From: a virus
Lineage: Duplodnaviria; Caudoviricetes
Length of the DNA stretch: 26,865 nt
Direction: 5' to 3' (one strand)
Virus record (IMG/VR): IMGVR_UViG_3300002101_000022
Location: 1 to 26,865 of that record
Below are positions 4,137 to 24,770 of this stretch, piece after piece. Under the pieces are notes generated by a model. That model searched no databases. It was given only the letters and a program-made list of their open reading frames with translations, and was not told where the DNA came from. Numbering within the stretch: position 1 is the stretch's first letter; the number at the start of each line of letters is the position of its first letter. A program made the translations under genes and the position numbers.

Positions 4137-4155
4137 AAAAATAACATAAAGGAGT

Positions 4156-6858: not shown

Positions 6859-6983
6859 CAGTGGTTATCCATAAATACCCTATAAGGGGAAACATGGTCT
6901 AATATACAAAGTTTAAGAGGTATGCAACCCTTTTTAAGAAGGGTGTAATTAAAAAGAATTATGCCCTTAATTTATTCTAAGAT

Positions 6984-7009
6984 TAAATTGTGTGGTCGAT
7001 CACAATTTA
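6984..7009 (+). promoter_or_regulatory. Hairpin with TGGTCGAT loop (1 of 4)
   Basis: TAAATTGTG-TGGTCGAT-CACAATTTA. Confidence 0.7.
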
Positions 7010-7060
7010 TATTTTTCATATTAATCATAAATAATAAACTCCAAAGGAGATTACATAAAC

Positions 7061-7300
7061 TTGCAAAAGATATCAAAAATTCAGATGGATACTCTCATCT
7101 CAAAAGGAATTCTCAAACTCTCAAAACAGGGTAATTTCGGAGACCAACTGGTAGTAGTCAATAAACAAGGTTCTGGAAAAGAAAAAACAAGGTTTATTAA
7201 TGACAATATTTATAATCAACTACTAAGGATGGAATCTCAATCAAAGGTTAATCCAGAAACAGTAAAACACAATCAAACATATCTGCTTAGTGCCTTGTAA
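7061..7300 (+). CDS. Small hypothetical protein, homolog of 22183..22416
   Basis: RBS AAAGGAG + TTG; shares KQGNFGDQLVVVNKQGSGKEKTRF with the second copy. Confidence 0.85.
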   Translation: MQKISKIQMDTLISKGILKLSKQGNFGDQLVVVNKQGSGKEKTRFINDNIYNQLLRMESQSKVNPETVKHNQTYLLSAL

Positions 7301-7337
7301 AATGTAGACAAAATAAAGAGTAGAGGAATGATACATA

Positions 7338-8558
7338 TTGCCAAATAAGGTATATGTAGACACAAATATCTTATTAAATCAAAACTTTAAGTTTGAAGAT
7401 TATGAAGAAGTTGCGATTAGTATTGTAAGTTTAGAAGAAATTGACGGACTTAAAAAGAGTCCAGATGTAGGATATAAAGCAAGATCAGCTACTAAAAGAA
7501 TTAAGAGTGCTACTAATGTAGATATCAAAATTGACTATGATTTCTCTTTTGAGAATAGATTCCTTGAGCATAAGGCAGATAATTTTATTTTAGGATTTGG
7601 ATGGCAGGTTTATAAAGAAGATAGCGAGTTTATATTCCTAACAGATGATTATAATTTATATATTAAAGCATATGCCATTGGACTTCCTTGTGATTTGTTC
7701 CAATACAAAGATACCGAGGACGATAACTATAAGGGATATCGAGAAGTTACATTTACTGATTCGGAATTAGCATCGTTTTATGAGAATAAAAAACTTAATG
7801 ATATAGGATTATTGACAAACGAATATGTTTTCATTAAAAATAAAGATGGAGAAATTGTTGATAAACAAAGATGGAACGGGAATGAATTCTTCAAGGTAAT
7901 TTTTGAAAGTAAGAAAGGTAAACTTGATTTTACTTATACAGATAAAATTAAGCCAAGGAATGATCAACAAGAATTAGCTTTTGACTTGTTTCAAAACAGA
8001 TTAATAACCATAAAGGCTGTTTTCGGTAAGGCGGGGTCAGGAAAAGATTTAATTATGGCTACCCATGCACTTTCTATGATAAAACAAGGCGTATTTGATA
8101 AGTTAGTATTTGTGAGAAACAACATTGAGGTTTTAGGAAGCAAGCCATTAGGATTCCTACCCGGAAGTTCTGATGATAAATTAATTTCATATGCTATGCC
8201 TTTAGCAGACCATGTTGGAGGAGTAGAAGGATTAACTAAGTTAATTGATGATGGAATAATTGTATTGCAACATCTAGGATTTATGCGCGGACGCGATATA
8301 AAACGCTCAATTATTTACTGTACAGAAGCAGAAAATATGAGCAAAGAACATATTCAATTACTTATTGGACGTTTAGCAGAGGGTAGTGTTTTGTGGTTAA
8401 ATGGAGACTTTAAGCAAATTGATGATAAGTTATTTGAAAGAAACAATGGACTAAAGCAAGTTATAAATAAGCTAAAGGGGCAAGAATTATTTGGCTGCGT
8501 AGAGTTAAACGTCACAGAGCGAAGTAAGTCTGCTGAATTAGCTGATCTATTAGATTAA
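7338..8558 (+). CDS. phoH: PIN-PhoH (PhoH2/YlaK-like) RNase-ATPase
   Basis: PIN motifs VDTN, EEIDGLK, DNFIL, TDDYNL; Walker A GKAGSGK, GFLPG, RGR, GDFKQID. Confidence 0.88.
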   Translation: MPNKVYVDTNILLNQNFKFEDYEEVAISIVSLEEIDGLKKSPDVGYKARSATKRIKSATNVDIKIDYDFSFENRFLEHKADNFILGFGWQVYKEDSEFIFLTDDYNLYIKAYAIGLPCDLFQYKDTEDDNYKGYREVTFTDSELASFYENKKLNDIGLLTNEYVFIKNKDGEIVDKQRWNGNEFFKVIFESKKGKLDFTYTDKIKPRNDQQELAFDLFQNRLITIKAVFGKAGSGKDLIMATHALSMIKQGVFDKLVFVRNNIEVLGSKPLGFLPGSSDDKLISYAMPLADHVGGVEGLTKLIDDGIIVLQHLGFMRGRDIKRSIIYCTEAENMSKEHIQLLIGRLAEGSVLWLNGDFKQIDDKLFERNNGLKQVINKLKGQELFGCVELNVTERSKSAELADLLD

Positions 8559-8593
8559 TAAAATAAACAGAATAAAAGGAGTTAATATATACC

Positions 8594-8872
8594 ATGAATA
8601 AGCAAGAATTAGTAGCATCAGTTGCTATTAAAGCAGATATGACCAAAAAGGATTCAGAAAAAGCAGTTGTAGCAGTTTTTGACGTTATCACAGAGGCATT
8701 AGCAAATGGCGAGAAAGTTTCTCTAGTCAATTTTGGTACATTTGAGACTCGTGATCGAGAAGCTAGGATTGGTCGCAATCCCTCCACACAAGAACCTATT
8801 TCCATTCCAGCAAAGCGTGTTCCTGCTTTTAAATCAGGCAAAGGACTTAAAGCAATCGTCAAGGGACTGTAA
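8594..8872 (+). CDS. hup: HU family DNA-binding protein (YonN-like)
   Basis: MNKQEL...FGTF...GRNPST...IPAKRVPAFKSGK. Confidence 0.95.
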   Translation: MNKQELVASVAIKADMTKKDSEKAVVAVFDVITEALANGEKVSLVNFGTFETRDREARIGRNPSTQEPISIPAKRVPAFKSGKGLKAIVKGL

Positions 8873-8904
8873 AACAAAATAAATAATAAGGTGGAATATA
8901 ATTA

Positions 8905-9105
8905 ATGTCAGTAAAAACAGAGAAGTTAGAAAGTGTTAAATTCAGTGCTAAAGGTATTCTAAAATCAGTTGATGAATTAGGATTTCATATTGAAGATGAA
9001 AAATCTGGAGATATTGAAGTTCTAACATTAGAAGATATTCAAACTCTTGTTGGCAAATCAGTTACTATTGCTTTTGCAAATAAGGAAGAGATTGAACCAG
9101 AATAG
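8905..9105 (+). CDS. YonK-like small acidic protein
   Basis: 66 aa, RBS AAGGTGG; size and position between HU and YonJ as in SPbeta. Confidence 0.55.
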   Translation: MSVKTEKLESVKFSAKGILKSVDELGFHIEDEKSGDIEVLTLEDIQTLVGKSVTIAFANKEEIEPE

Positions 9106-9322
9106 ATAATTTCATGAGGAGATAAATCTTTTATTAACTTATCCTCTCTCCTCTTCTATATAAACAGATGGGAAACATAGCAATGACAACATTGGACACT
9201 CATCTAGGTGTTTAAGATGTGGGCTGTGTGTGCTGATATTTGGTATTGGGTTAGGTCAGCTTATTACTATAAAAATACTAAACTAAATAGGTTTTGCAGT
9301 GATATCTTATATAAAAACTGCG

Positions 9323-9409
9323 TTAGAAAAACTTTGTAGGATGAGTTTTGTATATACCGCGATGAATGAATAAAATCATTTAATGGCGTTCTAGTTTTAA
9401 ATTCCTACT
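9323..9409 (+). ncRNA. Candidate 87-nt structured RNA upstream of the tRNA pair (copy 1)
   Basis: 81/87 identical to 24284..24370 with unrelated flanks; compensatory A-U to G-C pair. Confidence 0.6.
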
Positions 9410-9421
9410 CTCTCCTATTAT

Positions 9422-9497
9422 TCCGTGATAGCTCAATTGGTGGAGCAATCGGCTGTTAACCGATAGGTTGTAGATTCGAATTCTACTCGCGGAGCCA
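9422..9497 (+). tRNA. tRNA-Asn(GTT), CCA encoded
   Basis: Acceptor TCCGTGA/TCGCGGA, anticodon arm ATCGG-CTGTTAA-CCGAT, TTCGAA T loop. Confidence 0.95.
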
Positions 9498-9498
9498 T

Positions 9499-9574
9499 GC
9501 CGAAGTAGCTCAGTTGGTAGAGCAGATGATTTGTAATCATCAGGTCGCAGGTTCGACTCCTGTCTTCGGCTCCA
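9499..9574 (+). tRNA. tRNA-Thr(TGT), CCA encoded
   Basis: Acceptor GCCGAAG/CTTCGGC, anticodon arm GATGA-TTTGTAA-TCATC, GGTTCGACTCC. Confidence 0.96.
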
Positions 9575-9619
9575 AACTATACTCCCTATTCTCTTTAAAT
9601 TAAAGGAGGATTTTTTATT

Positions 9620-9763
9620 ATGGAAAAATTGAATATTGATCCTAAAATTTCAGATACCACCTGCCCATGTTGTAAAAATGAGAAGAACAGATTCTACATA
9701 AAGTTCTATTATGATAAAACATTTCTTCGTTGTGAAGATTGCGGATTCTTTCAAGAAATTTAA
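9620..9763 (+). CDS. 47 aa Zn-ribbon protein (below the ORF-track cutoff)
   Basis: RBS AAAGGAGG; MEKLNID...CPCC...CEDCGF; homolog at 24577. Confidence 0.8.
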   Translation: MEKLNIDPKISDTTCPCCKNEKNRFYIKFYYDKTFLRCEDCGFFQEI

Positions 9764-9765
9764 AA

Positions 9766-9784
9766 TCACATTGGTCGATTGTGA
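9766..9784 (+). promoter_or_regulatory. Hairpin with TTGGTCGAT loop (2 of 4)
   Basis: TCACA-TTGGTCGAT-TGTGA. Confidence 0.6.
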
Positions 9785-9820
9785 ATTAATAACGAAAATA
9801 AATATTGATTGAGGTTATGA

Positions 9821-11143
9821 ATGAATAGTAATCTAATAGATATTTGCTATAAAAAATATAATAAACAACTGAATATGAGCTGGGATTTAATCGCGAGTGA
9901 AAATAACTATGTTTCGGGTGAGGCATTGCGTAGTAAATTTAAAAAGTATCGCAAAGCAAATGGTAATGTTGCTCCAGAACAAGAAGTGGCTATGGTAATA
10001 GATAATGTTGAAGTTAAACCTGAAGTAATCTCTCCTATTCCCCAATACAAATCTTCGACAGAAGTAAAAAATGATGGTTCTCAAATTTCTGATAAACTTA
10101 TTGCTATGTCAAATGAAGAATCTAAAGATGTAAAATTCATCTTAGAATCTCATGGATATAATCCTCAAGGATGGGAATTGACATCTGCAAAAAATAGTAT
10201 TTGGAATGTAAATACTAAAGAAGATGGAATTAAGACTCTTTACTCTTCCAAGATTGCAGTAAAACCTAAAACTGCATACGCATGGAATGAAGAAGATGCT
10301 AAAAAAGTCTTTGCTAGTTTAAAAACAGATACAAATAATAAAGTAAATATAAAACCATTACAATATAAACAGAATGGAAAATTATTAGTCCTCCCTATTG
10401 CTGATTTTCATTTGAATCTATTGTCAGATAAATTATCAACAGGAAACGATTATAATATGGAGATTGCAGAAGAATTATTCTTCCATGTAATTAATGATGT
10501 AATAGATAGAGTTGATAATAAATCTTATGAAAAGGTTTTATTTGTTGTTGGAAATGATTTTGTCAATGCTGATAATTTGAGTGGCACTACTACTCATGGA
10601 ACTCCACAAGATAACTCAAGTTCATGGTTTAAAGCAGTAGAAAAAGCTACACAATTAATTATTAAAGCAACTGACATGTTGACTCTAATTGCTCCTGTAG
10701 ATGTTGTTCTAGTGCCTTCTAATCATGATTTACATACGATGTTTGGAGTAATGCAGACAATTGAAGCATGGTACAGAAATGATAAGAATGTGAGTATTGA
10801 TTCTAGTCCTTTACCAAGAAAATATTACAAGTTTGGTAAGATGTTAATTGCTTTATCTCACGATATGAAGGTAAAAGATGCTTTAAGGATTATTACTACT
10901 GAAGCAAAAAGTATGTGGAGTGATTGTGAGCATATTGTACTTTTATTGGCCCATTTACATCAGAGTATGGAATATGAAAAGCAAGGATATTTAGAGATAT
11001 TAAGATTGCCTTGTATTTCTGGTTGGTCAAGATGGAGCAATGACAAAGGCTATGTTCAGACTGAAAAGAAGAATCAGACATTTAATGTTGATAGTCAATT
11101 AGGTATTACTGATATTTTGAATACTGTAATTGAGTTGGGTTAA
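9821..11143 (+). CDS. YonJ-like calcineurin-type metallophosphoesterase
   Basis: ADFH, GND, SNHD, SHD and HLH metal-ligand motifs. Confidence 0.8.
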   Translation: MNSNLIDICYKKYNKQLNMSWDLIASENNYVSGEALRSKFKKYRKANGNVAPEQEVAMVIDNVEVKPEVISPIPQYKSSTEVKNDGSQISDKLIAMSNEESKDVKFILESHGYNPQGWELTSAKNSIWNVNTKEDGIKTLYSSKIAVKPKTAYAWNEEDAKKVFASLKTDTNNKVNIKPLQYKQNGKLLVLPIADFHLNLLSDKLSTGNDYNMEIAEELFFHVINDVIDRVDNKSYEKVLFVVGNDFVNADNLSGTTTHGTPQDNSSSWFKAVEKATQLIIKATDMLTLIAPVDVVLVPSNHDLHTMFGVMQTIEAWYRNDKNVSIDSSPLPRKYYKFGKMLIALSHDMKVKDALRIITTEAKSMWSDCEHIVLLLAHLHQSMEYEKQGYLEILRLPCISGWSRWSNDKGYVQTEKKNQTFNVDSQLGITDILNTVIELG

Positions 11144-11175
11144 ATAAAATTAAAAGATAGAGTGAGGATTAACTT

Positions 11176-11775
11176 ATGGCTGAAATGGGTGCTCTTGATA
11201 TTAATGAACTTGTTGCACAATTAAGTGAAAGTGCTGACCCAGTAATGTATCAGTATTTCAAGAATCTTAATAAAAGAACTATTATCATTAATGAAGGAAT
11301 TTCAGATACAGTAATTGAAACTGTATGCTTGCCTTTAATGGAAATGGATACTGATGGTACTGGGAAAGAAATTAATATTCTTCTCAACAGCGTAGGGGGC
11401 GAAGTTCACAACGGATTATTTCTCTGCGACTTAATATCTAAACTTAAAACAAAGACAACTATTACTGTAATGGCTTATGCGTACAGCATGGGTAGTCTTA
11501 TAATCATGGCAGGATTTAATAATCCAAATGTAACTGTAAAATGTCATTATTTCACAACAGCATTAATCCATAGTGGGAGCACATATTTAGAAGGTACTAC
11601 CACTCAAGTAAAGGATTACTTTAAATTCAGTGAGAAATATGAGGGTAAAATTAAAGAATATATTCTCTCTCATACAAAAATTACTGAAGAACAATATGAA
11701 AAAATGTCTCGGTATGAGTGGTACATGACAAGTGAAGAAATGTTAGAATATGGACTTGTAGACGAGATTCTTTAA
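11176..11775 (+). CDS. clpP: ClpP-family protease
   Basis: LNSVGG, AYSMGS (catalytic Ser), LIH (His), YGLVDEI. Confidence 0.85.
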   Translation: MAEMGALDINELVAQLSESADPVMYQYFKNLNKRTIIINEGISDTVIETVCLPLMEMDTDGTGKEINILLNSVGGEVHNGLFLCDLISKLKTKTTITVMAYAYSMGSLIIMAGFNNPNVTVKCHYFTTALIHSGSTYLEGTTTQVKDYFKFSEKYEGKIKEYILSHTKITEEQYEKMSRYEWYMTSEEMLEYGLVDEIL

Positions 11776-11830
11776 GTTTGCTGTAATTAATTACATTAAA
11801 ATAAAATAATAAAAGGTGGATAATATAAAT

Positions 11831-12328
11831 ATGCGTATCTTCAAAAATGAATCAATCTTCAATCAAGAAACTCAGGACTGGGAAGAGTATTACTCAATTG
11901 ATTCAGAACAGGTATCGGTTGACGTTTATAGTGAACAAGTAGAAATTGAAGAGCTTGCTACTGAAGATGATAACATTGAGAATGTAATTCCTTGTGATTG
12001 CGTATTCTGCCAACATCAACGTGAATTAGAGCGTCAGGATGAAGTACAAGAGCAAGAAGAAATTCAACCGTCATGTGATGGGAATTGTGCTGAGTGTGAT
12101 AGTGAGGACAGAGAAGAAGATTATCCAGATTGTGAATGCGAAGAATGCAAAGCAGAAAGAAAAGTTGATCTTTTAGCAGAAGCAGTTAGTAATATTTTAG
12201 AGGGAGTCTGTTGCCCTCAATGTTTGTTTGAGTTGCTTGAAAATGTTTATGATATTGCTCATTTAGAAGGTTTTGATGAAGGTGTGCAAACGATTAAAGA
12301 TGAGATACATGAATTTATTGGTGGCTAG
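11831..12328 (+). CDS. Very acidic, Cys-rich hypothetical protein
   Basis: RBS AAGGTGG favours ATG 11831; CDCVFC, CDGNCAEC, CECEEC, CCPQC. Confidence 0.75.
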   Translation: MRIFKNESIFNQETQDWEEYYSIDSEQVSVDVYSEQVEIEELATEDDNIENVIPCDCVFCQHQRELERQDEVQEQEEIQPSCDGNCAECDSEDREEDYPDCECEECKAERKVDLLAEAVSNILEGVCCPQCLFELLENVYDIAHLEGFDEGVQTIKDEIHEFIGG

Positions 12329-12362
12329 GCTTTAACTTAAAATAAAAGGAGGTTGAATCCCG

Positions 12363-12587
12363 ATGAAAGAAATTGAGGTTCAAACTGAGAATAGTGATAA
12401 AGAGATAATAAAGAGTAGCATTATTAAGATTGATGAGAATTCTGATAGGATTAAAGTTATTGTTTCTGTTGATGGCAATTTAGAATATCTTACTAAAATT
12501 CATGCACATATTGTAAAAGCACTTGAGGATAATTCAAAGGTCATTACAGTTCCTAGTTTTGTAAAGATTAATACGATTAAGGTATAA
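12363..12587 (+). CDS. Hypothetical protein
   Basis: 74 aa, RBS AAGGAGG. Confidence 0.8.
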   Translation: MKEIEVQTENSDKEIIKSSIIKIDENSDRIKVIVSVDGNLEYLTKIHAHIVKALEDNSKVITVPSFVKINTIKV

Positions 12588-12617
12588 GGTTATAGTTTTT
12601 GTAGTTTTGTGAGTTAT

Positions 12618-12645
12618 AAGGAGCTTGAGAAATCAGGCTTCTTTT
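12618..12645 (+). terminator. Intrinsic terminator
   Basis: AAGGAGCTTGA-GAAA-TCAGGCTTCTT then T-rich. Confidence 0.65.
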
Positions 12646-12672
12646 GTGTTTACAAAAATATTTGTGGACTAG

Positions 12673-12766
12673 GAAGATAGGTATAGATTCGGGGTCATGT
12701 CTGAGTCTCTGCACACCTATCTTCTTTATATTTTTAAGTGCAGATAAATAAATGTGCAGAAAGAGG
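12673..12766 (+). promoter_or_regulatory. Structured leader of the HNH-like gene
   Basis: GAAGATAGGT/ACCTATCTTC outer stem, AGATTCGG/CTGAGTCT inner stem, TCTGCACA complementary to TGTGCAGA beside the RBS. Confidence 0.55.
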
Positions 12767-12774
12767 TTTTTAAA

Positions 12775-13818
12775 ATGAGCAAAAGTAAGAATAGTGTTGA
12801 TTGGTCTGATAATGATTTACAGATTATTAGAGATAATTATGATTTCAAAACTACCAAAGAAATAATACCATTATTGTCTACGAAGCGAACTGAAAGAGCA
12901 GTTAGGCATAAGGTGCAAATATTGGGATTAAGAAAGATGGAAAGTTATATAGGTGACTATGAGAATCTAAAATATAAAATTATAGATAATAATCTTAATA
13001 AATATTGTAAGTCGTGTAAGAGATATCTACCTATGGCATATGATTATTTCCCAAAAGATACACATTGCACTGACAGTTTTAGGAATGTTTGTAGGGAATG
13101 TAAAGGAGGAAATTTTAGGATTGAATCTAATATTCATATATGGACAGAGGTAGAATGTCATTTATTGATGAAACATTATCCTAACTTTTCTAATAAGGAA
13201 CTTATTAATACATATTTCAATTGTATAAATATCGCCCAAATAGTTCGTAAAGCTTACCAATTAAAAATTCAAAAAAGTAAAGATACTTTAGATAAAATGT
13301 ATAAGGAAATCGGTAAATTTAATTCTGATAGATTAGAAGGAACGGATAAGTGGAAAAGTGAAGACAATCCTCAGTATAATAGCAAAAGATTCGGTTCAAT
13401 AAATCATAATTATAATGGTGGAATTAGTGCATTATATCAGGAATTGAGAAGGAACATAAAGCAATGGAAGATAGACAGCATAGAGAATGGAAATTATGTT
13501 AGCGTCTTAACTGGTAACAGATTCGATGTTGTACACCATCTGTATTCATTTGGTAATATCGTTAAAGACACTTTAACTGAAACTGGATTGCCATTATATG
13601 AAGACATATCTTTCTATTCAAATGAAGAGATAAAACAGTTAATAGACAAATGTATTGAGATTCATTATAGGCATCCTCTAGGAGTTTGTTTAGAAGAAAA
13701 GTATCATGCTAAATTCCATGAAGAATTTGGATATGGAAGTAATACGGAAGATCAATTTTATGAGTTCCTAGATAATTATTATAATGGAAAATATAAATAT
13801 TTAGAGGAAATAATCTAA
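12775..13818 (+). CDS. Free-standing HNH-like endonuclease with Myb-like repeats and a Zn finger
   Basis: WSDNDL and WTEVEC repeats, CKSC..CREC, C-terminal VHHL...GVCL...HAKFH; RBS AAAGAGG before ATG 12775. Confidence 0.65.
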   Translation: MSKSKNSVDWSDNDLQIIRDNYDFKTTKEIIPLLSTKRTERAVRHKVQILGLRKMESYIGDYENLKYKIIDNNLNKYCKSCKRYLPMAYDYFPKDTHCTDSFRNVCRECKGGNFRIESNIHIWTEVECHLLMKHYPNFSNKELINTYFNCINIAQIVRKAYQLKIQKSKDTLDKMYKEIGKFNSDRLEGTDKWKSEDNPQYNSKRFGSINHNYNGGISALYQELRRNIKQWKIDSIENGNYVSVLTGNRFDVVHHLYSFGNIVKDTLTETGLPLYEDISFYSNEEIKQLIDKCIEIHYRHPLGVCLEEKYHAKFHEEFGYGSNTEDQFYEFLDNYYNGKYKYLEEII

Positions 13819-13832
13819 GGGAGAAATAATAT

Positions 13833-14669
13833 ATGGCAACAAAACTTAAAATTAAACGCAATGAAATTACTTGCACTAAATGTGGAATAATTAGAACTAC
13901 AAATATAACTAACTACTTTAAAACAGAGAACCCTTTATATAACGGATTCTTTCCTACATGTAAAAGTTGTATATACGAACTATATCTCTCTCATATAGAA
14001 GATGGTTTAAATGCTAGAGAAGCAACAATTAAAATTTGTGAATTATTAGACAAACCATATATAAACGATGTTTTCTATAGTACATATGAAAAGGATAAAG
14101 ATAGTGAAAAAATTTTAGGTATTTATTTTAAAAATTCCTCAATGCCACAATATCGCAAACAAGGGCTTCTAAGATATAAAGATAGTATATTTGAAACACA
14201 AAATTCTAATAGCCATTCAAATACGACAGATATACAACAAGGTAATGGAGAAAAAACATATAGTAAACTTTGGATGGGTAATTATGTAAGAACAGATATT
14301 GAGTATTTGGACAACTATCTAAGAGGACTGCATAGTGATTTTAAAATCGTAACAGAAAATCATAAAGACTATGCAAAAAAGATAGCAAAAGCTAGTTTAC
14401 ATATGGATAAATGTTTTCAAGAGATGCTATTGGGTACTCCACAGTCCGACAAAAGATATAAAGACGCTAGGGAAACATTCGATACACTATCCAAATCAGC
14501 TCAATTTTCAGAGCAAACTAGAGGACAGAATGATATTAGTTTAGGTTGTTTTGGAGTTTTATTTGAAAGAGTAGAACAAAAGAAATGGGTACACCAACAT
14601 ACACCTGTAGAAAAAGATGATTATGATAAAATGATTGAATATTTTTCAACCATTAATAAGTCCGTTTAA
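13833..14669 (+). CDS. YonG-like Zn-finger protein, putative terminase small subunit
   Basis: CTKC..CKSC; directly upstream of the large terminase. Confidence 0.55.
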   Translation: MATKLKIKRNEITCTKCGIIRTTNITNYFKTENPLYNGFFPTCKSCIYELYLSHIEDGLNAREATIKICELLDKPYINDVFYSTYEKDKDSEKILGIYFKNSSMPQYRKQGLLRYKDSIFETQNSNSHSNTTDIQQGNGEKTYSKLWMGNYVRTDIEYLDNYLRGLHSDFKIVTENHKDYAKKIAKASLHMDKCFQEMLLGTPQSDKRYKDARETFDTLSKSAQFSEQTRGQNDISLGCFGVLFERVEQKKWVHQHTPVEKDDYDKMIEYFSTINKSV

Positions 14670-14681
14670 GGATGTGGTATT

Positions 14682-15918
14682 TTGACTATACATTCTAATT
14701 TCAGCAAGAAGAGTAGAATAGTAAAAGACGGATCAATGGATGATTTTGATAGTGCAATGAGTCATGACCCCATGAATGAAGAGAATATAAATATTGATGA
14801 ATGGGTAGAATTCATATCTTATTATCGCTATTACATAGATGAATTTGCAGTAGATGTTTTAGGATTGAGATTATATCCATTCCAGCGTCTTATATTAAGG
14901 GCTATGGCTAGATATCAGAACTCTATGTTTATTGCTTGTCGTGGCCTCGGTAAAAGTTACTTGACAGCAGTATTTTTCATATGTATAGCTATTCTCTACC
15001 CAAATATCAAGCTTGGCATAGCTAGTGGAAATGGACAGCAAGCACGTAATGTAATTATCCAAAAAATAAAAGGTGAATTAATAAAGAATGAGAATATATC
15101 AAGAGAAATAAATTTTCCAATTAAAACAGGTTCAGATGATTGTGTTGTTTGCTTTAAAAATGGTTCTGAAATTAGAGCAATTGTATTGGCTCAGAATCAA
15201 GGTGGAGACTCAGCTCGTTCGTGGAGATTTTCATATATATTAATAGATGAAGCAAAATTGGTTCGAGATTCTATCACAGAAGAAATCCTAATTCCGATGA
15301 CAAAGACTAAGAGACAGGCTGCTATATATCATAATATGCCTGAAAAAGGTAAAGTTATTTTTATATCATCTGCTCATTTGAAAATAACAGACTTATATAA
15401 GAGGTTTATATATCACTATAATAAAATGACAGAAGGGTCAAAGGATTATTATGTTTGCACTTTGCCTTATCAGGTTGGAGTTCAAGCTGGAATATTTGAA
15501 GAGGATGACATTTTAAAAGAGTTAGACAAACCTACAATGTCAAAAGATAAGTTTGATTATGAGTATAACGCAGTATTTGTAGGGTCTAGTGGTGAGAGTT
15601 ATTATCCCTATGAATTAACTAGCCCATGTAGGAAGCTTGAGAAGTGTGAATCTGAACAACCTAAAAAAACCACTAATCAATATATTATAGTACATGACGT
15701 TGCTATATCTAAATCAAAAGGTTCGGATAATGCATCAACTCACGTAATAAAATTAAAACCTAAACCAAACGGAACATATATTAAGGAAGTTGTATATAGT
15801 AAAATTCAAAATGGAATGCCATTACCTAAACAAATGGAATTTCTACGCGAATTAGTACATATCAAATTTCCAAACTGCATCAAGCTAGTAATTGATGTTA
15901 GAGGCAATGGAGAACCAT
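14682..15918 (+). CDS. terL: Terminase large subunit (YonF-like), exon 1
   Basis: LYPFQ, Walker A CRGLGKS, Walker B ILIDEA, FISSA, nuclease HDVA and DVRGNG. Confidence 0.9.
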
Positions 15919-17257
15919 TAACAGTAGTGGCGTAAGTCAGTGATGACTTAATGAAAACCTCGTGAATTTCTGGAAAGTCCTATTATATATTCTTTAATCC
16001 TACATATGATATAATATGGAGGAAGGAGGTATTTATAATGCTAGAAAACACTAAAAAGTGTAATAGATGCAATAATAAATATCCTGCTACAAAAGAATTT
16101 TTCTATTCCGATAAATCTAAAAAAGATGGGTTAACAACACTTTGCAAAACTTGTAAGGCTAATAGGGAAGTTATATATTCTGAAAACGATATTGGTAAAA
16201 TAATAGATTCTAGTGATACTTGTAAAGTTGGTATTTATAAAATAACCAACCTTAAAAATAACTTAATTTATATTGGAAGTACCGTAAATTTATATAGAAG
16301 GAAAAATGAGCATTTAAAAGAATTGAGAAATAATAAGCATCATAATGCTCATATACAAAATTCCTTTAATAAATACGGAGAAGATATATTTGAATTTACA
16401 ATTCAAGATATTGTTTTTGACTTAGAGTTCCTTATAGAAAGGGAACAGTTTTGGATTGATTTTTATAAAAGCAATGATAAAACTATAGGATATAACATTA
16501 GAGAAAAAGCCGAAAGTAATGTTAATTTACTTGCTTCAGATACAACAAGGCAAAGAATATCTAACGCAAATAAAGGTCATATAGTAAGTGAAGAAACAAA
16601 AATAAAATTATCAATTGCTAATAAGGGTAAAAGTCGTACAAAATCTAAAGAAACAAGGCTTAAATTGTCAATTGCGAATAAAGGAAAAGTATTTTCTCAG
16701 GATACTAAATATAAAATGAGTGTAGCTAGAAAAGAATATCTTACCAAGAACCCTATTACCGATAACGAGAGAAAAGCTAGAAGTAAAAGAATGGTGGGAG
16801 AAAATAATCCTAATTATGGCAAGACTGCTTCTGATGAAACTATTTTAAAGTATAGCAAACAAGTATTGCAATATGATAAGGATAACAATTTTATCAGAGA
16901 GTATATAAGTATAAATGCCACCAAACAATATGGATTTGACCCATCTTCGGTTGCAAAATGTTGTAAAAGTAAATTAAAACATCATAAAGGATATTATTGG
17001 GTATATAAGGATAATCAGAAGCCAAGCTCCTTAACAGGAGAAGGTTCAACGACTATCGAAAACACTAATTGACAACAGGTAAATAATAAGGTCGATTAGG
17101 AAGTGAGTAGAGTACACCATAAGCGATTGATGGTGGAAGTGCGAGGGTTCTTATCTTTAACCTAATAGATAAGAATATGATATAGTCTGACCTTTATAGG
17201 TAACTATAAGAAGTTATAAAACTATATAGATTTAGCGATTCTATATGAACATACGTG
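15919..17257 (+). mobile_element. Group I intron (IA-like, 1339 nt) in terL
   Basis: 5' exon ends in U, intron ends in G; IGS GTAGTGG pairs with ligated CCAT|TAC; P7 GACTA (17051)/TAGTC (17183); P3 ACCTCGT/GCGAGGG; splicing restores the frame. Confidence 0.9.
16038..17072 (+). CDS. Intron-encoded GIY-YIG homing endonuclease
   Basis: GIYKI...IYIGS, EREQFWI, NUMOD3-like SEETKIKLSIANKG repeats, NUMOD1-like C-terminus, N-terminal CNRC..CKTC; RBS AAGGAGG. Confidence 0.92.
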   Translation: MLENTKKCNRCNNKYPATKEFFYSDKSKKDGLTTLCKTCKANREVIYSENDIGKIIDSSDTCKVGIYKITNLKNNLIYIGSTVNLYRRKNEHLKELRNNKHHNAHIQNSFNKYGEDIFEFTIQDIVFDLEFLIEREQFWIDFYKSNDKTIGYNIREKAESNVNLLASDTTRQRISNANKGHIVSEETKIKLSIANKGKSRTKSKETRLKLSIANKGKVFSQDTKYKMSVARKEYLTKNPITDNERKARSKRMVGENNPNYGKTASDETILKYSKQVLQYDKDNNFIREYISINATKQYGFDPSSVAKCCKSKLKHHKGYYWVYKDNQKPSSLTGEGSTTIENTN

Positions 17258-17775
17258 TACCTTCATTATTCTATGAAACTTGGGAATATACAGACCCTAA
17301 AACAAAAGTAGTGACAGAGTTCCCTCCATTAGTTTTAGAAGATGACCCAGATGGCTTATCTTTAGTCGGTGCAATTCCTCTTATTAAGGGAATTACAGCA
17401 ACTGTCATCAGTAATAATACAATGTATTCTTATCTTAAAGCATGTTTTGAAGATATGTCTATACGTCTACTATTACCTTCTGAAGAAGTTGACTCTTTAT
17501 ATAAAATGGGAGATATGACTGCTGAAGAAATGGTAAATTATATTCAGACAGATATATTAATGCAGGAATTAAGCAATATAAAACAAGACGTAAGTGGTAA
17601 ATCAAATAATATAATTTATGATCGTATTGTTCAAACTAAAAAGCGTGATAGGGTAACTTCACTTGCATACGGTATGTCATTAGTATGTGAAATGGAAATG
17701 GAAAATAGAAAATCATTACACCAAGACCATTCTGATGCTTTTGAAACTTTAGCATCTTATACTATGTTCTTTTAG
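17258..17775 (+). CDS. terL: Terminase large subunit, exon 2 (spliced product 584 aa)
   Basis: Join reads GNGEP-L-PSLFYETW; KRDRVTSLAY nuclease Asp motif. Confidence 0.88.
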
Positions 17776-17797
17776 CAATACAGAAAGGAGGTAAATA

Positions 17798-19399: not shown

Positions 19400-19887
19400 T
19401 TGAACGTGAAAAGCGTTGGAAATTAAAATCAGATCCTCCCTCATCTGATATAAAAGACAAATACACAATCGAACAGACATATGCTAATTTTTCTCCTGAT
19501 GTTCGTATCCGTAAAATCACTAGTTCTGATAATCAAGATACATATTTCCATACAGTCAAGTATCAACTTCAGGATAATACCAGAGAAGAATTAGAACATC
19601 GTATAAGTAAGGAAAGATATGACCGTATTTTTGAAGTTATTGGGAAAACTCCAGTTGTAAAAGAACGAACTATTATTGAATTAAGTGATAGTTTAGTCGC
19701 AGAAATGGATTGCTTTCTTGATACTGGAGATACGATTGTTGAGGTTGAATTTCCGTCTGAAGAATCTATGAATGACTTTGTTGCTCCCGATTGGTTTGGG
19801 AAAGAACTTGAGAAAAACAAATCATTTAGTGTAGAAGAGTTCTGTAGAATTAATAATATTAAGGGTAGTTTGTGGGGTGATTTATAA
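19396..19887 (+). CDS. CYTH-domain (triphosphate tunnel) protein
   Basis: N-terminal ExExxW, RIRK, K.R, VEVEF, PDWFGKE; ATGA overlap with the portal. Confidence 0.85.
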   Translation: MIEREKRWKLKSDPPSSDIKDKYTIEQTYANFSPDVRIRKITSSDNQDTYFHTVKYQLQDNTREELEHRISKERYDRIFEVIGKTPVVKERTIIELSDSLVAEMDCFLDTGDTIVEVEFPSEESMNDFVAPDWFGKELEKNKSFSVEEFCRINNIKGSLWGDL

Positions 19888-20102
19888 TGTTTATCACTAA
19901 TCCATCTTCTCTCTCCTCTTTATCTAATATTTTTAAAACTAAATCAAAAACAGTTAATAACTATCTAATCAAAAATAATATTCCACTTCTATCTCAAGAT
20001 GAAAGTGGCTTTTATTTTAGTGACACAAATAACCTTAAACAGATTATAGATAATGCACCCTTCTGGATTAAGATTTTGTGCCGAGAGGAGGTGAAAAATT
20101 GA
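19887..20102 (+). CDS. Small hypothetical protein
   Basis: 71 aa, translationally coupled on both sides. Confidence 0.7.
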   Translation: MFITNPSSLSSLSNIFKTKSKTVNNYLIKNNIPLLSQDESGFYFSDTNNLKQIIDNAPFWIKILCREEVKN

Positions 20103-21580
20103 ATAAGTTATCGTTCGCAATAAGTAAATTTGATTTAATGGAAGAAGCATCTAATAGCGAACTTATGAAGGTCCGCTTATGGATAGTATCCGAAGGTGAT
20201 AATCAACATCAAAAACCTATTCCTTGGACAGCAATTGAAAAAGCAAGGTCAACTTTAGTAGGTAAGCCAATTGTAGCAAAATATGATCGTTATAGTAAAG
20301 ATTTAATGGGTCATGAATTTGATGAAATTGCAGTTGGAGTAATCTTAGCTGATAGCGATATCTTTTATGAAACTGATGAAGAAGGTAAAAGATGGCTTTG
20401 TGCTGATGGAATTATATGGTGCAGATATGCCAAGGATGTAGCTTTCGTTTTAGATAGAGACCAAATTAAAAATTTAAGTATGGAAATTATTATTTTGGAA
20501 TCTGGAGAAAACGATTCTATTGAATTATTTTCTTTTAGCGGAATTACTTTGATTGGAACTGCTCCTGCAATTCCTAATGCTAGGGTAGAAGTTTTATCTT
20601 TTTCTATTGTAAAGGAAGAAATCGAACACCTTATGTATGATTTTAAGATTCCAGATAGCGTTAAACAAAATGCTAAAAAGGGTTTAGGTCTGGATGATTG
20701 TAAGAATTGTACGGCTGTAAATATCTCGATTGCAAATCAACTTATAAATAATGAATTTGCAAGTCTAGATTTATTACATAATATAGTTAAGTTTTCATCT
20801 AAGACAAATACTGAGTCTTCCGTATATTTATTAGGGGGGCTAGAGTCTTTAGAATGGGCAGAAAACATTATAAAACCACAAACAGAAGAAACTAAAAAGG
20901 AGGAAGATATAATGCCTACAGAGGATACAATACCTACAAAAGATACTGAAAAATGCGAAGTAGAACAAGAATCAATGGGATCTGATGCTAATGTTGAGGC
21001 AGTTGCTCAAACAGTAGAAGCTGATAAACAAGCCGAAGTAGATAAAGAAATCGTTGAAGAAAAACAAGAAGCAATGGCAGAAGTAATTGTAGTAGAAGTG
21101 GAAGTAGTTGTACCAGAAGATGAAGAAACTGGTGAAGAAATAGAAACAACTGAAGACACTATTCCAGAAGACTATCAAGCTAAATTTGCAGAAATGGTAA
21201 CAAAATGTTCCGCATTAGAAGCTAAAATGTCTGAAATGACTATGAAAATGAGTGCGTCAGAAGAAAAAATGGCAGTTTACATGTCTGAAAATGAACAACT
21301 CAAGAAATTCAAATCAGATATTCAAGAGAAAGAAATGTTATCTGTGATTGAATATACCCTTTCAGAAGTTATGGAGTCAATGCCATCCGAAAAAATGGAA
21401 GAATTGCGTGAAGAAGCAAAAAGTTTCTCTGCTGAAAACGTGAATATTTGGGTTAATAAAGTTAAAGCAGAGGCATTTAGTTTTTCTAAGGGTAAGACTA
21501 GTGAAGGGTTTATCAGAGTTGGACTTCCATTTAATAACGTAGCTAAAAAAGAATCCAATAGTTTGTGGGATAAGATTTAA
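20099..21580 (+). CDS. Prohead protease/scaffold (YonD-like)
   Basis: RBS GAGGAGG + TTG 20099; GKPIV..GHE and LSMEI..PA protease-like motifs; acidic coiled-coil C-terminus. Confidence 0.75.
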   Translation: MNKLSFAISKFDLMEEASNSELMKVRLWIVSEGDNQHQKPIPWTAIEKARSTLVGKPIVAKYDRYSKDLMGHEFDEIAVGVILADSDIFYETDEEGKRWLCADGIIWCRYAKDVAFVLDRDQIKNLSMEIIILESGENDSIELFSFSGITLIGTAPAIPNARVEVLSFSIVKEEIEHLMYDFKIPDSVKQNAKKGLGLDDCKNCTAVNISIANQLINNEFASLDLLHNIVKFSSKTNTESSVYLLGGLESLEWAENIIKPQTEETKKEEDIMPTEDTIPTKDTEKCEVEQESMGSDANVEAVAQTVEADKQAEVDKEIVEEKQEAMAEVIVVEVEVVVPEDEETGEEIETTEDTIPEDYQAKFAEMVTKCSALEAKMSEMTMKMSASEEKMAVYMSENEQLKKFKSDIQEKEMLSVIEYTLSEVMESMPSEKMEELREEAKSFSAENVNIWVNKVKAEAFSFSKGKTSEGFIRVGLPFNNVAKKESNSLWDKI

Positions 21581-21658
21581 TCCAATATGTCAAATAGTTT
21601 TACTTGGATTATTAAATATATATAGATACAAAAATAAAAAGAAATGAGGCAACAAATA

Positions 21659-21814
21659 ATGAGTAATGCAATCTTAATTCAAAACGCAGTTACTGCTACG
21701 CATATCGACGCTCTAAATAGAAGTGTAATTGCTACGGCAGACATCCAAAACGGTAATGTCTTCAATCTGAATGGTCAATCTGCAACGGCAGGACAATCTG
21801 AGGTATGGAAGTAG
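21659..21814 (+). pseudogene. 5' fragment (51 aa) of a probable head structural gene, cut at the module junction
   Basis: RBS GAGG; MSNAILIQNAV...DIQNGNVF...EVWK*; Ala/Asn/Thr-rich; follows the scaffold gene. Confidence 0.6.
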
Positions 21815-22008
21815 TTTTAACTGTTAGTAATTTTAGAAATTTTGTCTATGAGTATTTAAGATGGAAAGGTGAAAATATTCGTAATTGTGTAAAATGTAAT
21901 ATCTTATTTGCACCTACAAATAACCGTCAAAAATACTGCAACGTATGTAATGTTGAAGTTAATAGAGAAAAAACTAAAGAAAATATGAAAATTAATAGGA
22001 ATGTTTGA
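21805..22008 (+). pseudogene. 3' fragment of a Zn-finger gene from the second module
   Basis: CVKC..TNNRQKYCNVC resembles the YonO C-terminal CESC..TNNNIKYCLSC and occupies the equivalent position; no well-spaced RBS. Confidence 0.55.
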
Positions 22009-22011
22009 TTT

Positions 22012-22114
22012 AGAAAACACTTGAAACCCTTACACACCAACGGTTTCAAGTGTTTCTCTAGTTATCCTAATGTGGAGAGTATTATACCCTCTAACCCTTG
22101 CTATATAAGCGTTT
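22012..22114. repeat. Pair of 6-11-6 palindromes, the first within a longer inverted repeat
   Basis: AAACACTTGAAACC...GGTTTCAAGTGTTT; second copy TAACCC-N11-GCGTTT (22092-22114). Confidence 0.7.
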
Positions 22115-22131
22115 GGTCGATACGCTTATAT
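22103..22131 (+). promoter_or_regulatory. Hairpin with TTGGTCGAT loop (3 of 4)
   Basis: ATATAAGCGT-TTGGTCGAT-ACGCTTATAT. Confidence 0.7.
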
Positions 22132-22182
22132 TAATTTTTTTATACATAATAAATAATATACTCCAAAGGAGAATAAATAGAC

Positions 22183-22416
22183 TTGCAAAAGATATCTAAA
22201 ATAGAAATGGATTTTTTAATTTCTAGTGGTACGTTGGAATTAAATAAACAAGGTAACTTCGGTGACCAACTAGTAGTAGTCAATAAACAAGGTTCTGGAA
22301 AAGAAAAAACTAGATTTGTAAATGATCATGTATATAGCAAACTTCAGTTTCTTAAATCCAAAGAAAAAATCAATTCAGAAACTATTAAACATAATCAGAT
22401 GTATCTAGTCATGTAG
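22183..22416 (+). CDS. Small hypothetical protein, homolog of 7061..7300
   Basis: Direct similarity, RBS AAAGGAG + TTG. Confidence 0.85.
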   Translation: MQKISKIEMDFLISSGTLELNKQGNFGDQLVVVNKQGSGKEKTRFVNDHVYSKLQFLKSKEKINSETIKHNQMYLVM

Positions 22417-22454
22417 TACGGTAGATAAAATAAAGAGCAGAGGAATGGTTTGTA

Positions 22455-23678
22455 TTGACCGTTAAACCATATATAGACTCAAATATATTCATGGATTATT
22501 CTAAGGAATTACTTGAAGAATTTGATCATATCTACCTCCCCGGATATGTAGCAGGAGAATTAGATAATTTAAGACATAACGGCAAATCTGAAGAAGCAAA
22601 ATATCAAGCAAGACGAGCAAGCCGTGATATTGACGCTAACGAAGATAAAATTACATATATTATCAATGAAACTAGTTGTGATAATCTCCCATCCCACTAT
22701 GATAAAGATAATATGGATAATAAAATAATTTCAGTATTAATTGATTTATATGCCAAGGATAAAGATTTTATTGCTTATAGTAATGATATCTTATTCAGGC
22801 AAAAGTGCAAAGAACTTAAAATTCCTTATAAAAAGTATGGAGACAAAAGTAAAAATGATGGAACTTATTTAGGTCATAAAAATCTTAGTGGTGATACGAA
22901 TTTTATTAATAATCTGTTTGATAATGTAAATAAAGAGATAACAGAACATAGTTTTGTTGCTAATGAATATCTAATCTTAAATAATACAGACACAAATAAA
23001 ACTTCAGAACATCGTTTTGATGGATATAAATTTGTAGACTTGAGATTGCCTAACTCAAAGGTTATTAAAGGCATGAATCCTCTCCAGAGATGTGCTCTTG
23101 ACCTTTTGAACAACAAATCTATTCCAATTAAAATCATAGCGGGAGGATTTGGTTCAGGTAAAACAATTCTATCAGTAAAAGTTGGATTAGATATGGTAGT
23201 TGCAAAAGAAGACTATAAAACACTACTGTTTTTGAGAAATCCTGTTCCTAGTGATGGAGCAGACATTGGATTCCTTCCGGGGGATAAAGCAGAAAAGATT
23301 GCAGACTACTGTAGACCATTCCTACAATATATAGAAGACCCTAAGAATCAATTTTACTCTGAGAATTTAATCAGAGATGAAAAGATTAAGATGGATGTTA
23401 CAACTTTCCTAAAAGGTGTATCCATTGATGATAGCTTTGTCATTATGGATGAAGCAGAAGACTTAAATACTAAATTAATAAAACTTGTTGGCTCAAGGAT
23501 TGGGAAAACATCATGTGTAGTATTTACTGGTGATTGTAAACAATCTGAGAGCAAGTATAAACAAGACAATGGATTAATGAAGTTGATTAAGTGTGGTAAA
23601 GGCAATCCATTAGTTGGTATAGTAGTACTAGAGGACGATTTAAGGTCTGACGCTAGTAAAGTATTCGCAGAAATGTGA
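22455..23678 (+). CDS. phoH: PIN-PhoH protein (second, divergent copy)
   Basis: IDSN, ELDNL, DNKII, SND; GGFGSGKT, GFLPG, DEAE, GDCKQ. Confidence 0.87.
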   Translation: MTVKPYIDSNIFMDYSKELLEEFDHIYLPGYVAGELDNLRHNGKSEEAKYQARRASRDIDANEDKITYIINETSCDNLPSHYDKDNMDNKIISVLIDLYAKDKDFIAYSNDILFRQKCKELKIPYKKYGDKSKNDGTYLGHKNLSGDTNFINNLFDNVNKEITEHSFVANEYLILNNTDTNKTSEHRFDGYKFVDLRLPNSKVIKGMNPLQRCALDLLNNKSIPIKIIAGGFGSGKTILSVKVGLDMVVAKEDYKTLLFLRNPVPSDGADIGFLPGDKAEKIADYCRPFLQYIEDPKNQFYSENLIRDEKIKMDVTTFLKGVSIDDSFVIMDEAEDLNTKLIKLVGSRIGKTSCVVFTGDCKQSESKYKQDNGLMKLIKCGKGNPLVGIVVLEDDLRSDASKVFAEM

Positions 23679-23716
23679 TATATAAAATAAACAGAATAAA
23701 AGGAGTTAATACAAAA

Positions 23717-23992
23717 ATGACCAGACAAGATATTATCGCAAAAATGGCAGAACTATCGGAAACTAGCAAGGTTGAATCAGAGAAACATTTATCAGCATTT
23801 CTAGGAGCACTAGAATTTGCAGTAGAGAATAAAGAAGAGTTTAAATTAATGGGTTATTTTTCAATGGATGTTGTAGAAAGAGCTGAACGAGTTGGGACTA
23901 ATCCTCAGACAAAAGAGAAAATTAATATCCCTGCTACAAAAGCAGTTAAGACTAAGATTTTCAAGAAACTCAAGGATTTAGCAAAAGCGTAA
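23717..23992 (+). CDS. hup: HU family protein (second, divergent copy)
   Basis: RBS AAAGGAG before ATG 23717; RAERVGTNPQTKEKINIPA. Confidence 0.88.
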   Translation: MTRQDIIAKMAELSETSKVESEKHLSAFLGALEFAVENKEEFKLMGYFSMDVVERAERVGTNPQTKEKINIPATKAVKTKIFKKLKDLAKA

Positions 23993-24027
23993 ATAAAAAT
24001 AAATAATAAGGTGGAATTTAATAATAT

Positions 24028-24186
24028 ATGTCAATTATTAATAATGAACATTGTTCTAGTTGTGCAAAAATTACAGTCTGTGAGTGGAATAAGAAAATTG
24101 AAGCACTATCTGGCACTGAGAAAAAGCCAATTCTTCTTGACTTAACTATTAATGAATGTGGAGAATTTCTTCAAGTTGCAGAATAA
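24028..24186 (+). CDS. 52 aa Cys-containing protein (below the ORF-track cutoff)
   Basis: RBS AAGGTGG; MSIINNEHCSSCAKITVC...C; occupies the YonK-like slot. Confidence 0.75.
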   Translation: MSIINNEHCSSCAKITVCEWNKKIEALSGTEKKPILLDLTINECGEFLQVAE

Positions 24187-24283
24187 GAATAGATAACTTT
24201 TTGGAGGGATAAATCAATTATTTAAAATTAATCTCCCTCCTTCCTATTATATAGGGTGCTCATTACGTTCGTGTGGGCATCCA

Positions 24284-24370
24284 TTAGAAAAACTATGTAG
24301 GATAAGTTTTGCATATACCGCGATGAATGGATAAAACCATTTGATGGCGTTCTAGTTTTAAATTCCTACT
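24284..24370 (+). ncRNA. Candidate 87-nt structured RNA (copy 2)
   Basis: 81/87 identical to 9323..9409. Confidence 0.6.
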
Positions 24371-24375
24371 TTTAT

Positions 24376-24450
24376 AGTTTAGTAGCTCAATGGTGGAGCA
24401 ACACTCTGTTAAAGTGAAGGTTGTAGGTTCGAGTCCTACCTAAACTGCCA
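24376..24450 (+). tRNA. tRNA-Asn(GTT), atypical A1-U72, CCA encoded
   Basis: Acceptor AGTTTAG/CTAAACT, anticodon arm CACT-CTGTTAA-AGTG, GGTTCGAGTCC. Confidence 0.9.
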
Positions 24451-24453
24451 AAT

Positions 24454-24529
24454 GCCGAAGTAGCTCAGTTGGTAGAGCAGATGATTTGTAATCATCAGGT
24501 CGCAGGTTCGACTCCTGTCTTCGGCTCCA
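24454..24529 (+). tRNA. tRNA-Thr(TGT), identical to 9499..9574
   Basis: 76/76 identity. Confidence 0.96.
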
Positions 24530-24576
24530 AACTATGCTACCCTATTCTCTTTAAATTAAAGGAGGATTTTTTTATT

Positions 24577-24714
24577 ATGGAAAAATTGAATATTGATTTA
24601 GAAGATACTACTTGCCCTAGCATTGTTTGTGGGAAACAAAGATACTTCTTTAAAATGTATTGTGGAAAAGAAATATTTTACTGTCAAGATTGTGGGTTTT
24701 GGGAATACATATAA
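24577..24714 (+). CDS. 45 aa Zn-ribbon protein
   Basis: RBS AAAGGAGG; MEKLNID...CPSIVC...CQDCGF. Confidence 0.8.
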   Translation: MEKLNIDLEDTTCPSIVCGKQRYFFKMYCGKEIFYCQDCGFWEYI

Positions 24715-24734
24715 TCCTGTTGGTCGATAGGATT
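24713..24734 (+). promoter_or_regulatory. Hairpin with TTGGTCGA(T) loop (4 of 4)
   Basis: AATCCT-GTTGGTCGAT-AGGATT. Confidence 0.6.
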
Positions 24735-24770
24735 TTGATAAACGAAAATAAATTACATTGGAGTGCATAA

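Follow-up and report, generated by a model that had tools for sequence, protein, structure and literature searches.

In phage lambda the N gene follows nutL, and the hairpin promoter of phage N4 is known as a template-strand, small-loop design. The promoter of the N4 virion RNA polymerase is described as an extruded single-stranded DNA hairpin that is bound by its own polymerase (PMC13434306). For YonO, the RNA polymerase of phage SPbeta, a start was mapped at position 2225998 of B. subtilis 168, while the promoter was left undefined; according to the peer-review file, specific initiation was not obtained in vitro, and DNA structure, supercoiling or extra factors were suspected (Forrest et al., PMC5467207). 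The 26.9-kb fragment of an SPbeta-like phage analysed here over its whole length (IMGVR_UViG_3300002101_000022, hereafter the window) encodes a YonO-type polymerase and carries four hairpins with the common loop TGGTCGAT, which an earlier note had taken as a candidate cis-signal of the YonO late system. Sequence comparison suggests that the hairpin is a new motif that may work like a phage RNA operator and is unlikely to be a YonO promoter.

All four proposed stem-TGGTCGAT-stem sites were found on the + strand (Table 1), and the distances from stem end to the next start codon, said to be preserved, measured 52, 37, 52 and 37 nucleotides (nt). The four sites correspond to two positions, P1 before the open reading frame (ORF) ORF79 and P2 before a yonJ-like gene, each occurring once in each of two homologous modules (6990-7372 and 22111-22489, 73% identical; 9323-9640 and 24284-24597, 87% identical), so that the equal offsets, although correct as measured, are in part due to descent. 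No 8-mer of the window other than TGGTCGAT has four copies that are closed by a stem, the background being 2.45% of window positions closed by a stem of at least 5 base pairs (bp). The loop alone is not enriched in the window at one mismatch (13 found, 10.4 expected), and a fifth exact copy at position 3190 lacks a stem.

For comparison, about 240 YonO loci were fetched, and the union across relatives comprises 48 distinct hairpin copies, 29 from P1, collected by their position before ORF79, and 19 from P2, partly picked by pattern. The loop core reads GGTCGAT in 46 of the 48 copies and GGTCGGT in two, with a 5' T in 45; loops are 8-12 nt long and take up additional bases mainly on the 5' side. 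The stems, by comparison, are interchangeable, with 29 different inner stems and a stem score of at least 6 in 45 of the 48 copies. In an alignment of 19 P1 copies both sides change in all nine pairs, and covariation is 0.65 as opposed to 0.20 for shuffled and 0.11-0.16 for slid sequences. The arm-swap test gave 8.6 for own and 2.7 for swapped arms at P1, and 6.5 and 3.3, respectively, at P2. Among 445 in-stem cells, mismatches on the sense strand comprise 20 G.T or T.G, no A.C or C.A and 12 others, with a scoring that is symmetric for both types. The selection on structure plus loop sequence that had been claimed is thus borne out by P1 covariation, arm swapping and the mismatch pattern. Since G.T mismatches are tolerated and A.C mismatches are not found, it is the sense strand that folds, either as RNA or as non-template DNA, and the template-strand folding expected of an N4-type hairpin promoter for YonO is not observed. 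The loop core would also permit kissing loops, in which P1 and P2, or two transcripts, pair loop to loop, as GUCGAU is self-complementary with two wobble ends, the sole loop variant (A to G) keeps a wobble pair and each genome holds two copies; with no perfect palindrome variant among the 48 copies, only two Watson-Crick pairs left in the G variant and P2 missing in some genomes, we consider this very improbable.

Several scans delimit the motif. A stem-blind search for the loop with the downstream GAAAATAAA box yielded 103 distinct sites that were read; 11 lie near module genes, seven of them with at least 6 Watson-Crick pairs and one (L406) without a stem and looking like chance, and of the 92 sites away from module genes four have stems and are apparently the same element at contig ends. 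A looser scan for GGTCGAT-gap-ACTCCAA (about 6600 stretches, 120 read), used purely as a chance control, gave stems in 2 of 120. Only two hairpin matches are present in the 154-kb genome G005 (153,759 bp, 92% complete) and two in host genome G004, both on a prophage contig (150 of 3354 candidates scored). Model R1, which was built on P1, did not report the P2 copies of the window at E values up to 5; when run on 61 loci that do not belong to the hairpin-bearing clade, SPbeta included, it matched none of them below E 0.35. RNAalifold predicted no pairs on a MAFFT alignment of 16 P2 copies, because the registers differ. At E values up to 1, the only Rfam hits in the window were transfer RNAs (tRNAs), overlain by weak YrlA hits, and seven related loci matched tRNAs alone. 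No description of the hairpin motif or of a YonO promoter sequence was found in the literature, although subscription papers and supplements could hold one.

The hairpin is tied to ORF79. When loci were fetched by ORF79 without regard to a stem, the hairpin was located within 160 nt upstream in 40 of 41 loci (38 with GGTCGAT, two with GGTCGGT), the remaining locus, L543, being divergent. The ORF79 family comprises 194 relatives at E 0.001 or better, and ORF79 received no assignment in Pfam, PHROG, PDB-sequence or Atlas searches. The protein is modelled as a compact strand-helix-strand-strand-helix fold (predicted local distance difference test 92), with conserved basic residues on its hairpin; K6, K35, K42 and R44 are conserved. 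A fold search gave no match at E 0.001, the best rows being weak MerR/Xis-like DNA binders (Z 3.4 at most, root-mean-square deviation 2.2, 43 aligned). The start codon of ORF79 is TTG in nearly all copies.

By contrast, the association with yonO fails in both directions. The hairpin is present in 19 of the 69 YonO rows of the tree and absent from 50; the 19 rows form one group, equivalent to one change (support 52), and the nearest YonO row outside this clade, L091, has neither the hairpin nor ORF79. Conversely, G005, G006, G007 and G008, which were reached through P2 records, contain P1, ORF79 and P2 without a YonO orthologue, and other two-barrel polymerases of 856-936 amino acids (aa) are located upstream. 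The four polymerase types (YonO and the G005-, G008- and BUCT082-types) are mutually only 20-25% identical and each carries a DxDxD-like motif. Of 30 distinct leaders of ORF79 loci, 11 lie behind YonO, 10 behind other types and 9 behind polymerases that were not typable. As the hairpin accompanies ORF79 behind YonO and non-YonO polymerases alike, it belongs to the ORF79 module and not to YonO. An N4-type promoter read directly by YonO would agree with the placement of the hairpin at the head of the late region, but not with its absence from most YonO rows or its unchanged form behind three non-YonO polymerases. Furthermore, an unbiased 6-mer count over the leaders of 175 YonO loci revealed no other invariant loop on variable stems, a count of limited power. 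As side observations, at least three further single-chain two-barrel polymerase types occupy the yonO slot (G005:C1 ~145400-148000, G006, G007, G008; L249), and behind most of them lies an ORF of 260-300 aa whose end is a zinc ribbon resembling the YonO C-terminus.

The statement that all four hairpins lie downstream of yonO is correct by position, but module 2 is foreign and comes from a phage that has a different type of polymerase, as the ORF remnant at 21805-22008 has its match in the ORF located behind non-YonO polymerases. At about 21800, a truncated ORF (21644-21814) joins a fragment from such a phage, which duplicates the late-leader module. This junction is either recombinant or an assembly chimera, and L509, which is identical across it, gives no independent support. 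Taken together, four two-barrel single-chain polymerases of 20-25% identity have been swapped in front of one conserved late-leader module.

The element that does follow YonO is the TAAGGRRA box, located a median of 127 nt past the yonO stop. A matrix trained on YonO leaders, evaluated by leave-one-out with close relatives kept in, found a box site in 175 of 193 loci, top-ranked within its own locus in 110 of the 175. The box is present in 10 of the 11 YonO leaders mentioned above and in none of the 10 leaders of other polymerase types, and it is absent from BUCT082. As a candidate for a YonO promoter it is better than the hairpin: located upstream of yonN, it accompanies YonO in phages across the Bacillota and vanishes on polymerase swap. 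Its AT-rich stretch, which leads into a purine run beginning with G, resembles T7-type starts. A weaker CTAATWTACAAA..AAGAG tract follows it. A role as a pac site was rejected, since pac lies between yonR and yonP (bioRxiv 2021.11.22.469490). A sigma-70 promoter was likewise rejected as an explanation of the hairpins, the scan being not enriched (61 sites against 61.3) and without a site accounting for them.

The distances within the leaders place the hairpin with respect to translation. In loci at least 64% identical to the window YonO, P1 is found 170-210 nt past the yonO stop, and inserts, where present, widen this distance to 500-920 nt. It follows the TAAGGRRA box after 57-108 nt in 14 of 18 loci and after 390-550 nt in the other four, where structured-RNA inserts of 300-500 nt lie between box and hairpin (L171, L174, L179, L234), whereas the distance from the loop to the Shine-Dalgarno sequence stays at 48-92 nt in the 18 loci measured. 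From these upstream inserts and the steady downstream distance it follows that the hairpin keeps to the translation start and not to the promoter candidate, and it is probably located inside the transcript. The inserts themselves (L234:3591-4170, L171:4816-5235, L174:6508-7077, L179:2163-2689; about 300 nt before P1 also in L501) are long hairpins, possibly non-coding RNA arrays like those of SPbeta, and the three that were scanned (L234, L171, L174) had no Rfam match. Spacers of 19 P1 copies contain 15 G in 722 nt (2% G). Within the spacer, the CTCC-AAA-GGAG sequence (also at 22160-22171) could mask the ORF79 Shine-Dalgarno sequence in a 4-bp stem, and ACTCCAAA is kept in most P1 leaders. Upstream of P1, a three-segment repeat at 6927-6968 is able to form either of two hairpins; it is found in some clade members as well as in L091 and L242, and missing in others.

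These distances also bear on two further explanations. The hairpin could be a boxB/nut-like antitermination site that loads ORF79 onto the transcribing polymerase, which would suit the short distance of P1 from the box in most loci, the small basic protein that follows and the second copy further down. However, the same site is found under four polymerases of such low identity, inserts part it from the promoter candidate, the sole terminator-like hairpin nearby (6939-6968) is upstream of P1 rather than downstream, and YonO pauses little in vitro (PMC5467207); we therefore consider antitermination improbable. Neither module-1 hairpin was itself listed as an intrinsic terminator in a scan of 2200-13000, and most copies are followed by A-rich sequence; an intrinsic terminator would have a GC-rich stem and, after it, a U-tract. 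An antisense target for the loop was also rejected, because the six minus-strand GGTCGA occurrences in clade loci share no position. The second explanation is a processing or protection signal, in which the hairpin, alone or with a bound protein, would mark a site of cleavage or halt 5'-to-3' decay, so that late messenger RNA segments gain stable 5' ends once upstream tRNAs and structured RNAs are cut out. The behaviour of RNase J1 and RNase Z in Bacillota is the background to this explanation. P2 does come after two tRNAs, in several relatives structured-RNA inserts precede P1, both stems lie just outside the ribosome footprint, and the module encodes a PIN-PhoH protein and a yonJ-like nuclease; on the other hand, P2 stems are weak (-3.9 kcal/mol in the window), L234 has the hairpin without a PhoH hit, and the shortest leaders contain no upstream structured RNA. 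We rate such a signal as unlikely.

The strongest link to a YonO promoter comes from SPbeta. The published start was placed by means of gene coordinates given in PMC4838370, which differ from NC_001884 by a single offset for eight gene ends. It corresponds to NC_001884 60451, 9 nt past a stem whose loop holds TGGTCA and which lies, like P2, between HU and yonK/yonJ; 5.5% of positions fall 4-15 nt past any such stem. This result favours a hairpin promoter. In 35 window-type copies no start signature at a fixed distance was found, there being no conserved purine past the loop (0.54 at the SPbeta-equivalent +21/+22). In addition, SPbetaL2, SPbetaL7 and L115 keep yonO without the SPbeta hairpin and mapped start, and BUCT082, with a polymerase 24% identical, keeps the hairpin. 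In view of this, of the wobbles favouring the non-template strand and of the polymerase distribution, direct reading by YonO in the manner of N4 seems highly improbable in spite of the 9-nt coincidence.

A related possibility is a DNA hairpin on the non-template strand, read by ORF79, which would recruit whichever phage polymerase is present, with a start about 9 nt past the stem as in SPbeta. The hairpin would then be a polymerase-independent late start signal, with ORF79 as specificity factor that lets the four two-barrel polymerases begin one and the same late operon, and the SPbeta hairpin as a distant version. The weak MerR/Xis-like resemblance of ORF79 would fit, as would the DNA structure, supercoiling or extra factors suspected by the authors (PMC5467207), yet no purine is conserved at a fixed distance, AT-rich stems of 6-7 bp with loops of 8-12 nt form cruciforms poorly (the DNA hairpin averages -3.4 kcal/mol at P2), relatives of ORF79 are absent from SPbeta-type loci and model R1 gives the SPbeta hairpin no score. 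Such a DNA signal, and with it the role of ORF79 as specificity factor, appears improbable. How the SPbeta hairpin relates to those of the window is uncertain, and we treat it as an analogue. Inspection of the sequence by eye puts the mapped SPbeta start about 10 nt inside a 23-bp RNA stem, which is why the mapped end may be a processed end. A similar long stem lies just upstream, and the whole stretch (NC_001884 ~60460-60370) is deleted in the yonO-keeping relatives L252, L253 and L115. At the same place, L035 and L226 have another stem with an ATGGCTA loop, again abutting a long stem. For the SPbeta region, Rfam returned DUF3800-VIII alone, and raw RNA reads of the SPbeta-identical locus L128 amounted to 10 records, in one of four runs. 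All this gives a sharper form to the question of where the YonO promoter lies: the published start has no counterpart in yonO-keeping relatives and is embedded in a long RNA stem, whereas the TAAGGRRA box stays with YonO.

The third option of the earlier note, an RNA operator or processing site, is the one that the data support, and of its two halves we tentatively favour the operator, as a good possibility rather than a probability: the hairpin may act in the late transcript as an RNA operator to which a module protein, likely ORF79, binds, and may set the expression of the next gene. An invariant loop on a covarying sense-strand stem and a link to translation starts, including that of the candidate regulator itself, both observed here, are features of such an operator. 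Transcription would start upstream of the hairpin, at the TAAGGRRA box in YonO phages and at other signals elsewhere. The GGUCGAU loop on its interchangeable stem would then fold in the late transcript; it lies upstream of two start codons at the head of the late region, at a distance of 37 to about 100 bases. ORF79, presumably the first protein made from the late leader, would bind P1 and limit its own synthesis by feedback, and would bind P2 and thereby tune the yonJ-like gene, with which the block of packaging and structural genes begins. The weakest step of this mechanism is the sign of the regulatory effect.

Several observations weigh against an RNA operator bound by ORF79. Across relatives, 30-64 nt at P1 and 18-28 nt at P2 separate the stem end from the Shine-Dalgarno sequence; the two do not overlap in any copy, and the distance is large for steric repression, so that the overlap with or abutment to the ribosome-binding site typical of an operator is missing. 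The G.T cells are not independent, several being common by descent, and single-stranded DNA tolerates G.T wobbles too, with DNA energies that barely separate the strands (17 vs 9 of 35), so the folded strand could be a non-template DNA hairpin, although we infer RNA. In SPbeta the similar hairpin lies upstream of a mapped 5' end. Within YonO phages, hairpin and ORF79 make up a single clade, and their co-occurrence there counts as roughly a single event. Outside this clade, distant relatives of ORF79 are found in about 34 YonO loci, which do not have this loop. Concerning the binding partner, the clade-limited 47-aa zinc-ribbon protein is an alternative candidate. In 4 of 17 contexts (4 of the 9 that were not fetched by the hairpin pattern) no P2 follows the zinc-ribbon ORF. 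Distant ORF79 relatives (L197, L015, L189, L105, L072, L235, L236, L022) are often preceded by other hairpins, some with rewritten stems and a common GAT..AC loop and some terminator-like.

The coordinates of the features are compiled in Table 1. Past yonO, the gene order is ORF79, PIN-PhoH, HU, ORF66, two tRNAs, the 47-aa ORF, the yonJ-like gene, a Clp-type protease, terminase and portal, and the block from ORF79 to the yonJ-like gene recurs at 22183-25979. The terminase large subunit gene is interrupted near a GIY-YIG homing endonuclease (14682-17775), probably by a group I intron, and a second GIY-YIG gene is located at the window end (26013-26813). Two degenerate dyads lie directly past the polymerase gene (6782-6856), with single ones at about 22013-22056 and 2960-2990. 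Dyads of the AAACCCTTG-n5-CAAGGGTTT type occur directly past the polymerase gene of any type (L104, L110, L544 and many more) and could be recombinase core sites or operators.

Table 1. Positions of the hairpins, candidate signals and genes in the window.
Feature	Position	Strand	Details
YonO-type two-barrel RNA polymerase	4156-6780	+	PF05183; 51.5% identical to SPbeta YonO
TAAGGRRA box	6864-6915	+	Candidate YonO promoter, occurring with YonO; first conserved G at 6886; not present in module 2
Hairpin P1, module 1	6984-7009	+	9-bp stem, loop TGGTCGAT at 6993-7000; RNA fold -7.1 kcal/mol; matched by model R1
Spacer and Shine-Dalgarno region of ORF79	7010-7060	+	A-rich, G-poor; CTCC-AAA-GGAG at 7038-7049
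ORF79	7061-7300	+	Small basic protein, no named family; candidate hairpin binder
PIN-PhoH	7338-8558	+	
HU	8594-8872	+	
ORF66	8905-9105	+	
Two tRNAs	9422-9494, 9499-9571	+	
47-aa CxxC zinc-ribbon ORF	9620-9763	+	Clade-limited; second candidate binder
Hairpin P2, module 1	9766-9784	+	-3.9 kcal/mol; immediately past stop of 47-aa zinc-ribbon ORF, yonJ-like gene 37 nt on
GAAAATAAAT box	9794-9803, again 24744-24753	+	Between P2 and Shine-Dalgarno sequence
yonJ-like phosphoesterase/exonuclease gene	9821-11143	+	First gene past P2; phrog_704, phrog_284
C-terminal remnant of the ~280-aa ORF located behind non-YonO polymerases	21805-22008	+	phrog_30716 positions 197-257 of 276; L511 at 75%
Hairpin P1, module 2	22103-22131	+	10-bp stem, 9-nt loop; -9.8 kcal/mol
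ORF77, ORF79 homologue	22183-22416	+	70% identical
Hairpin P2, module 2	24713-24734	+	Overlaps stop of 45-aa zinc-ribbon ORF (24577-24714)
Second yonJ-like gene	24771-25979	+	phrog_284; 90% identical to G005 gene

If the operator reading is correct, the hairpin is a cis-acting RNA motif that Rfam does not contain and for which a candidate partner can be named, a protein of an uncharacterised family, and its place among described systems can be outlined as follows. With the SPbeta P_YonO hairpin it shares a TGGTC-containing loop, a G.T-tolerant stem and the location between HU and yonJ, while the SPbeta hairpin has the loop TGGTCA and not GGTCGAT, abuts a 23-bp RNA stem in a non-coding RNA array, is not accompanied by ORF79 and is dispensable in natural relatives. 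As in the N4 promoters, a conserved hairpin loop lies beside the gene of a phage single-chain polymerase; here, however, the stems are AT-rich and bear loops of 8-12 nt, it is the sense strand that folds, and one polymerase can take the place of another. Lambda boxB and N likewise combine an RNA hairpin soon past the probable start with the gene of a small basic protein and a second copy elsewhere, but no boxA-like partner is shown here, the hairpin tracks translation starts and not the promoter and goes with phage-type polymerases, and ORF79 forms a folded domain. Among the translational operators of phages, the T4 gene 43 hairpin and the MS2 coat operator also consist of a short stem and a sequence-specific loop near a ribosome-binding site, with a copy directly before the gene of the binder, whereas in the present case the stem is located 18-64 nt before the Shine-Dalgarno sequence without ever covering it, the motif is not in Rfam and the candidate binder belongs to no named family.

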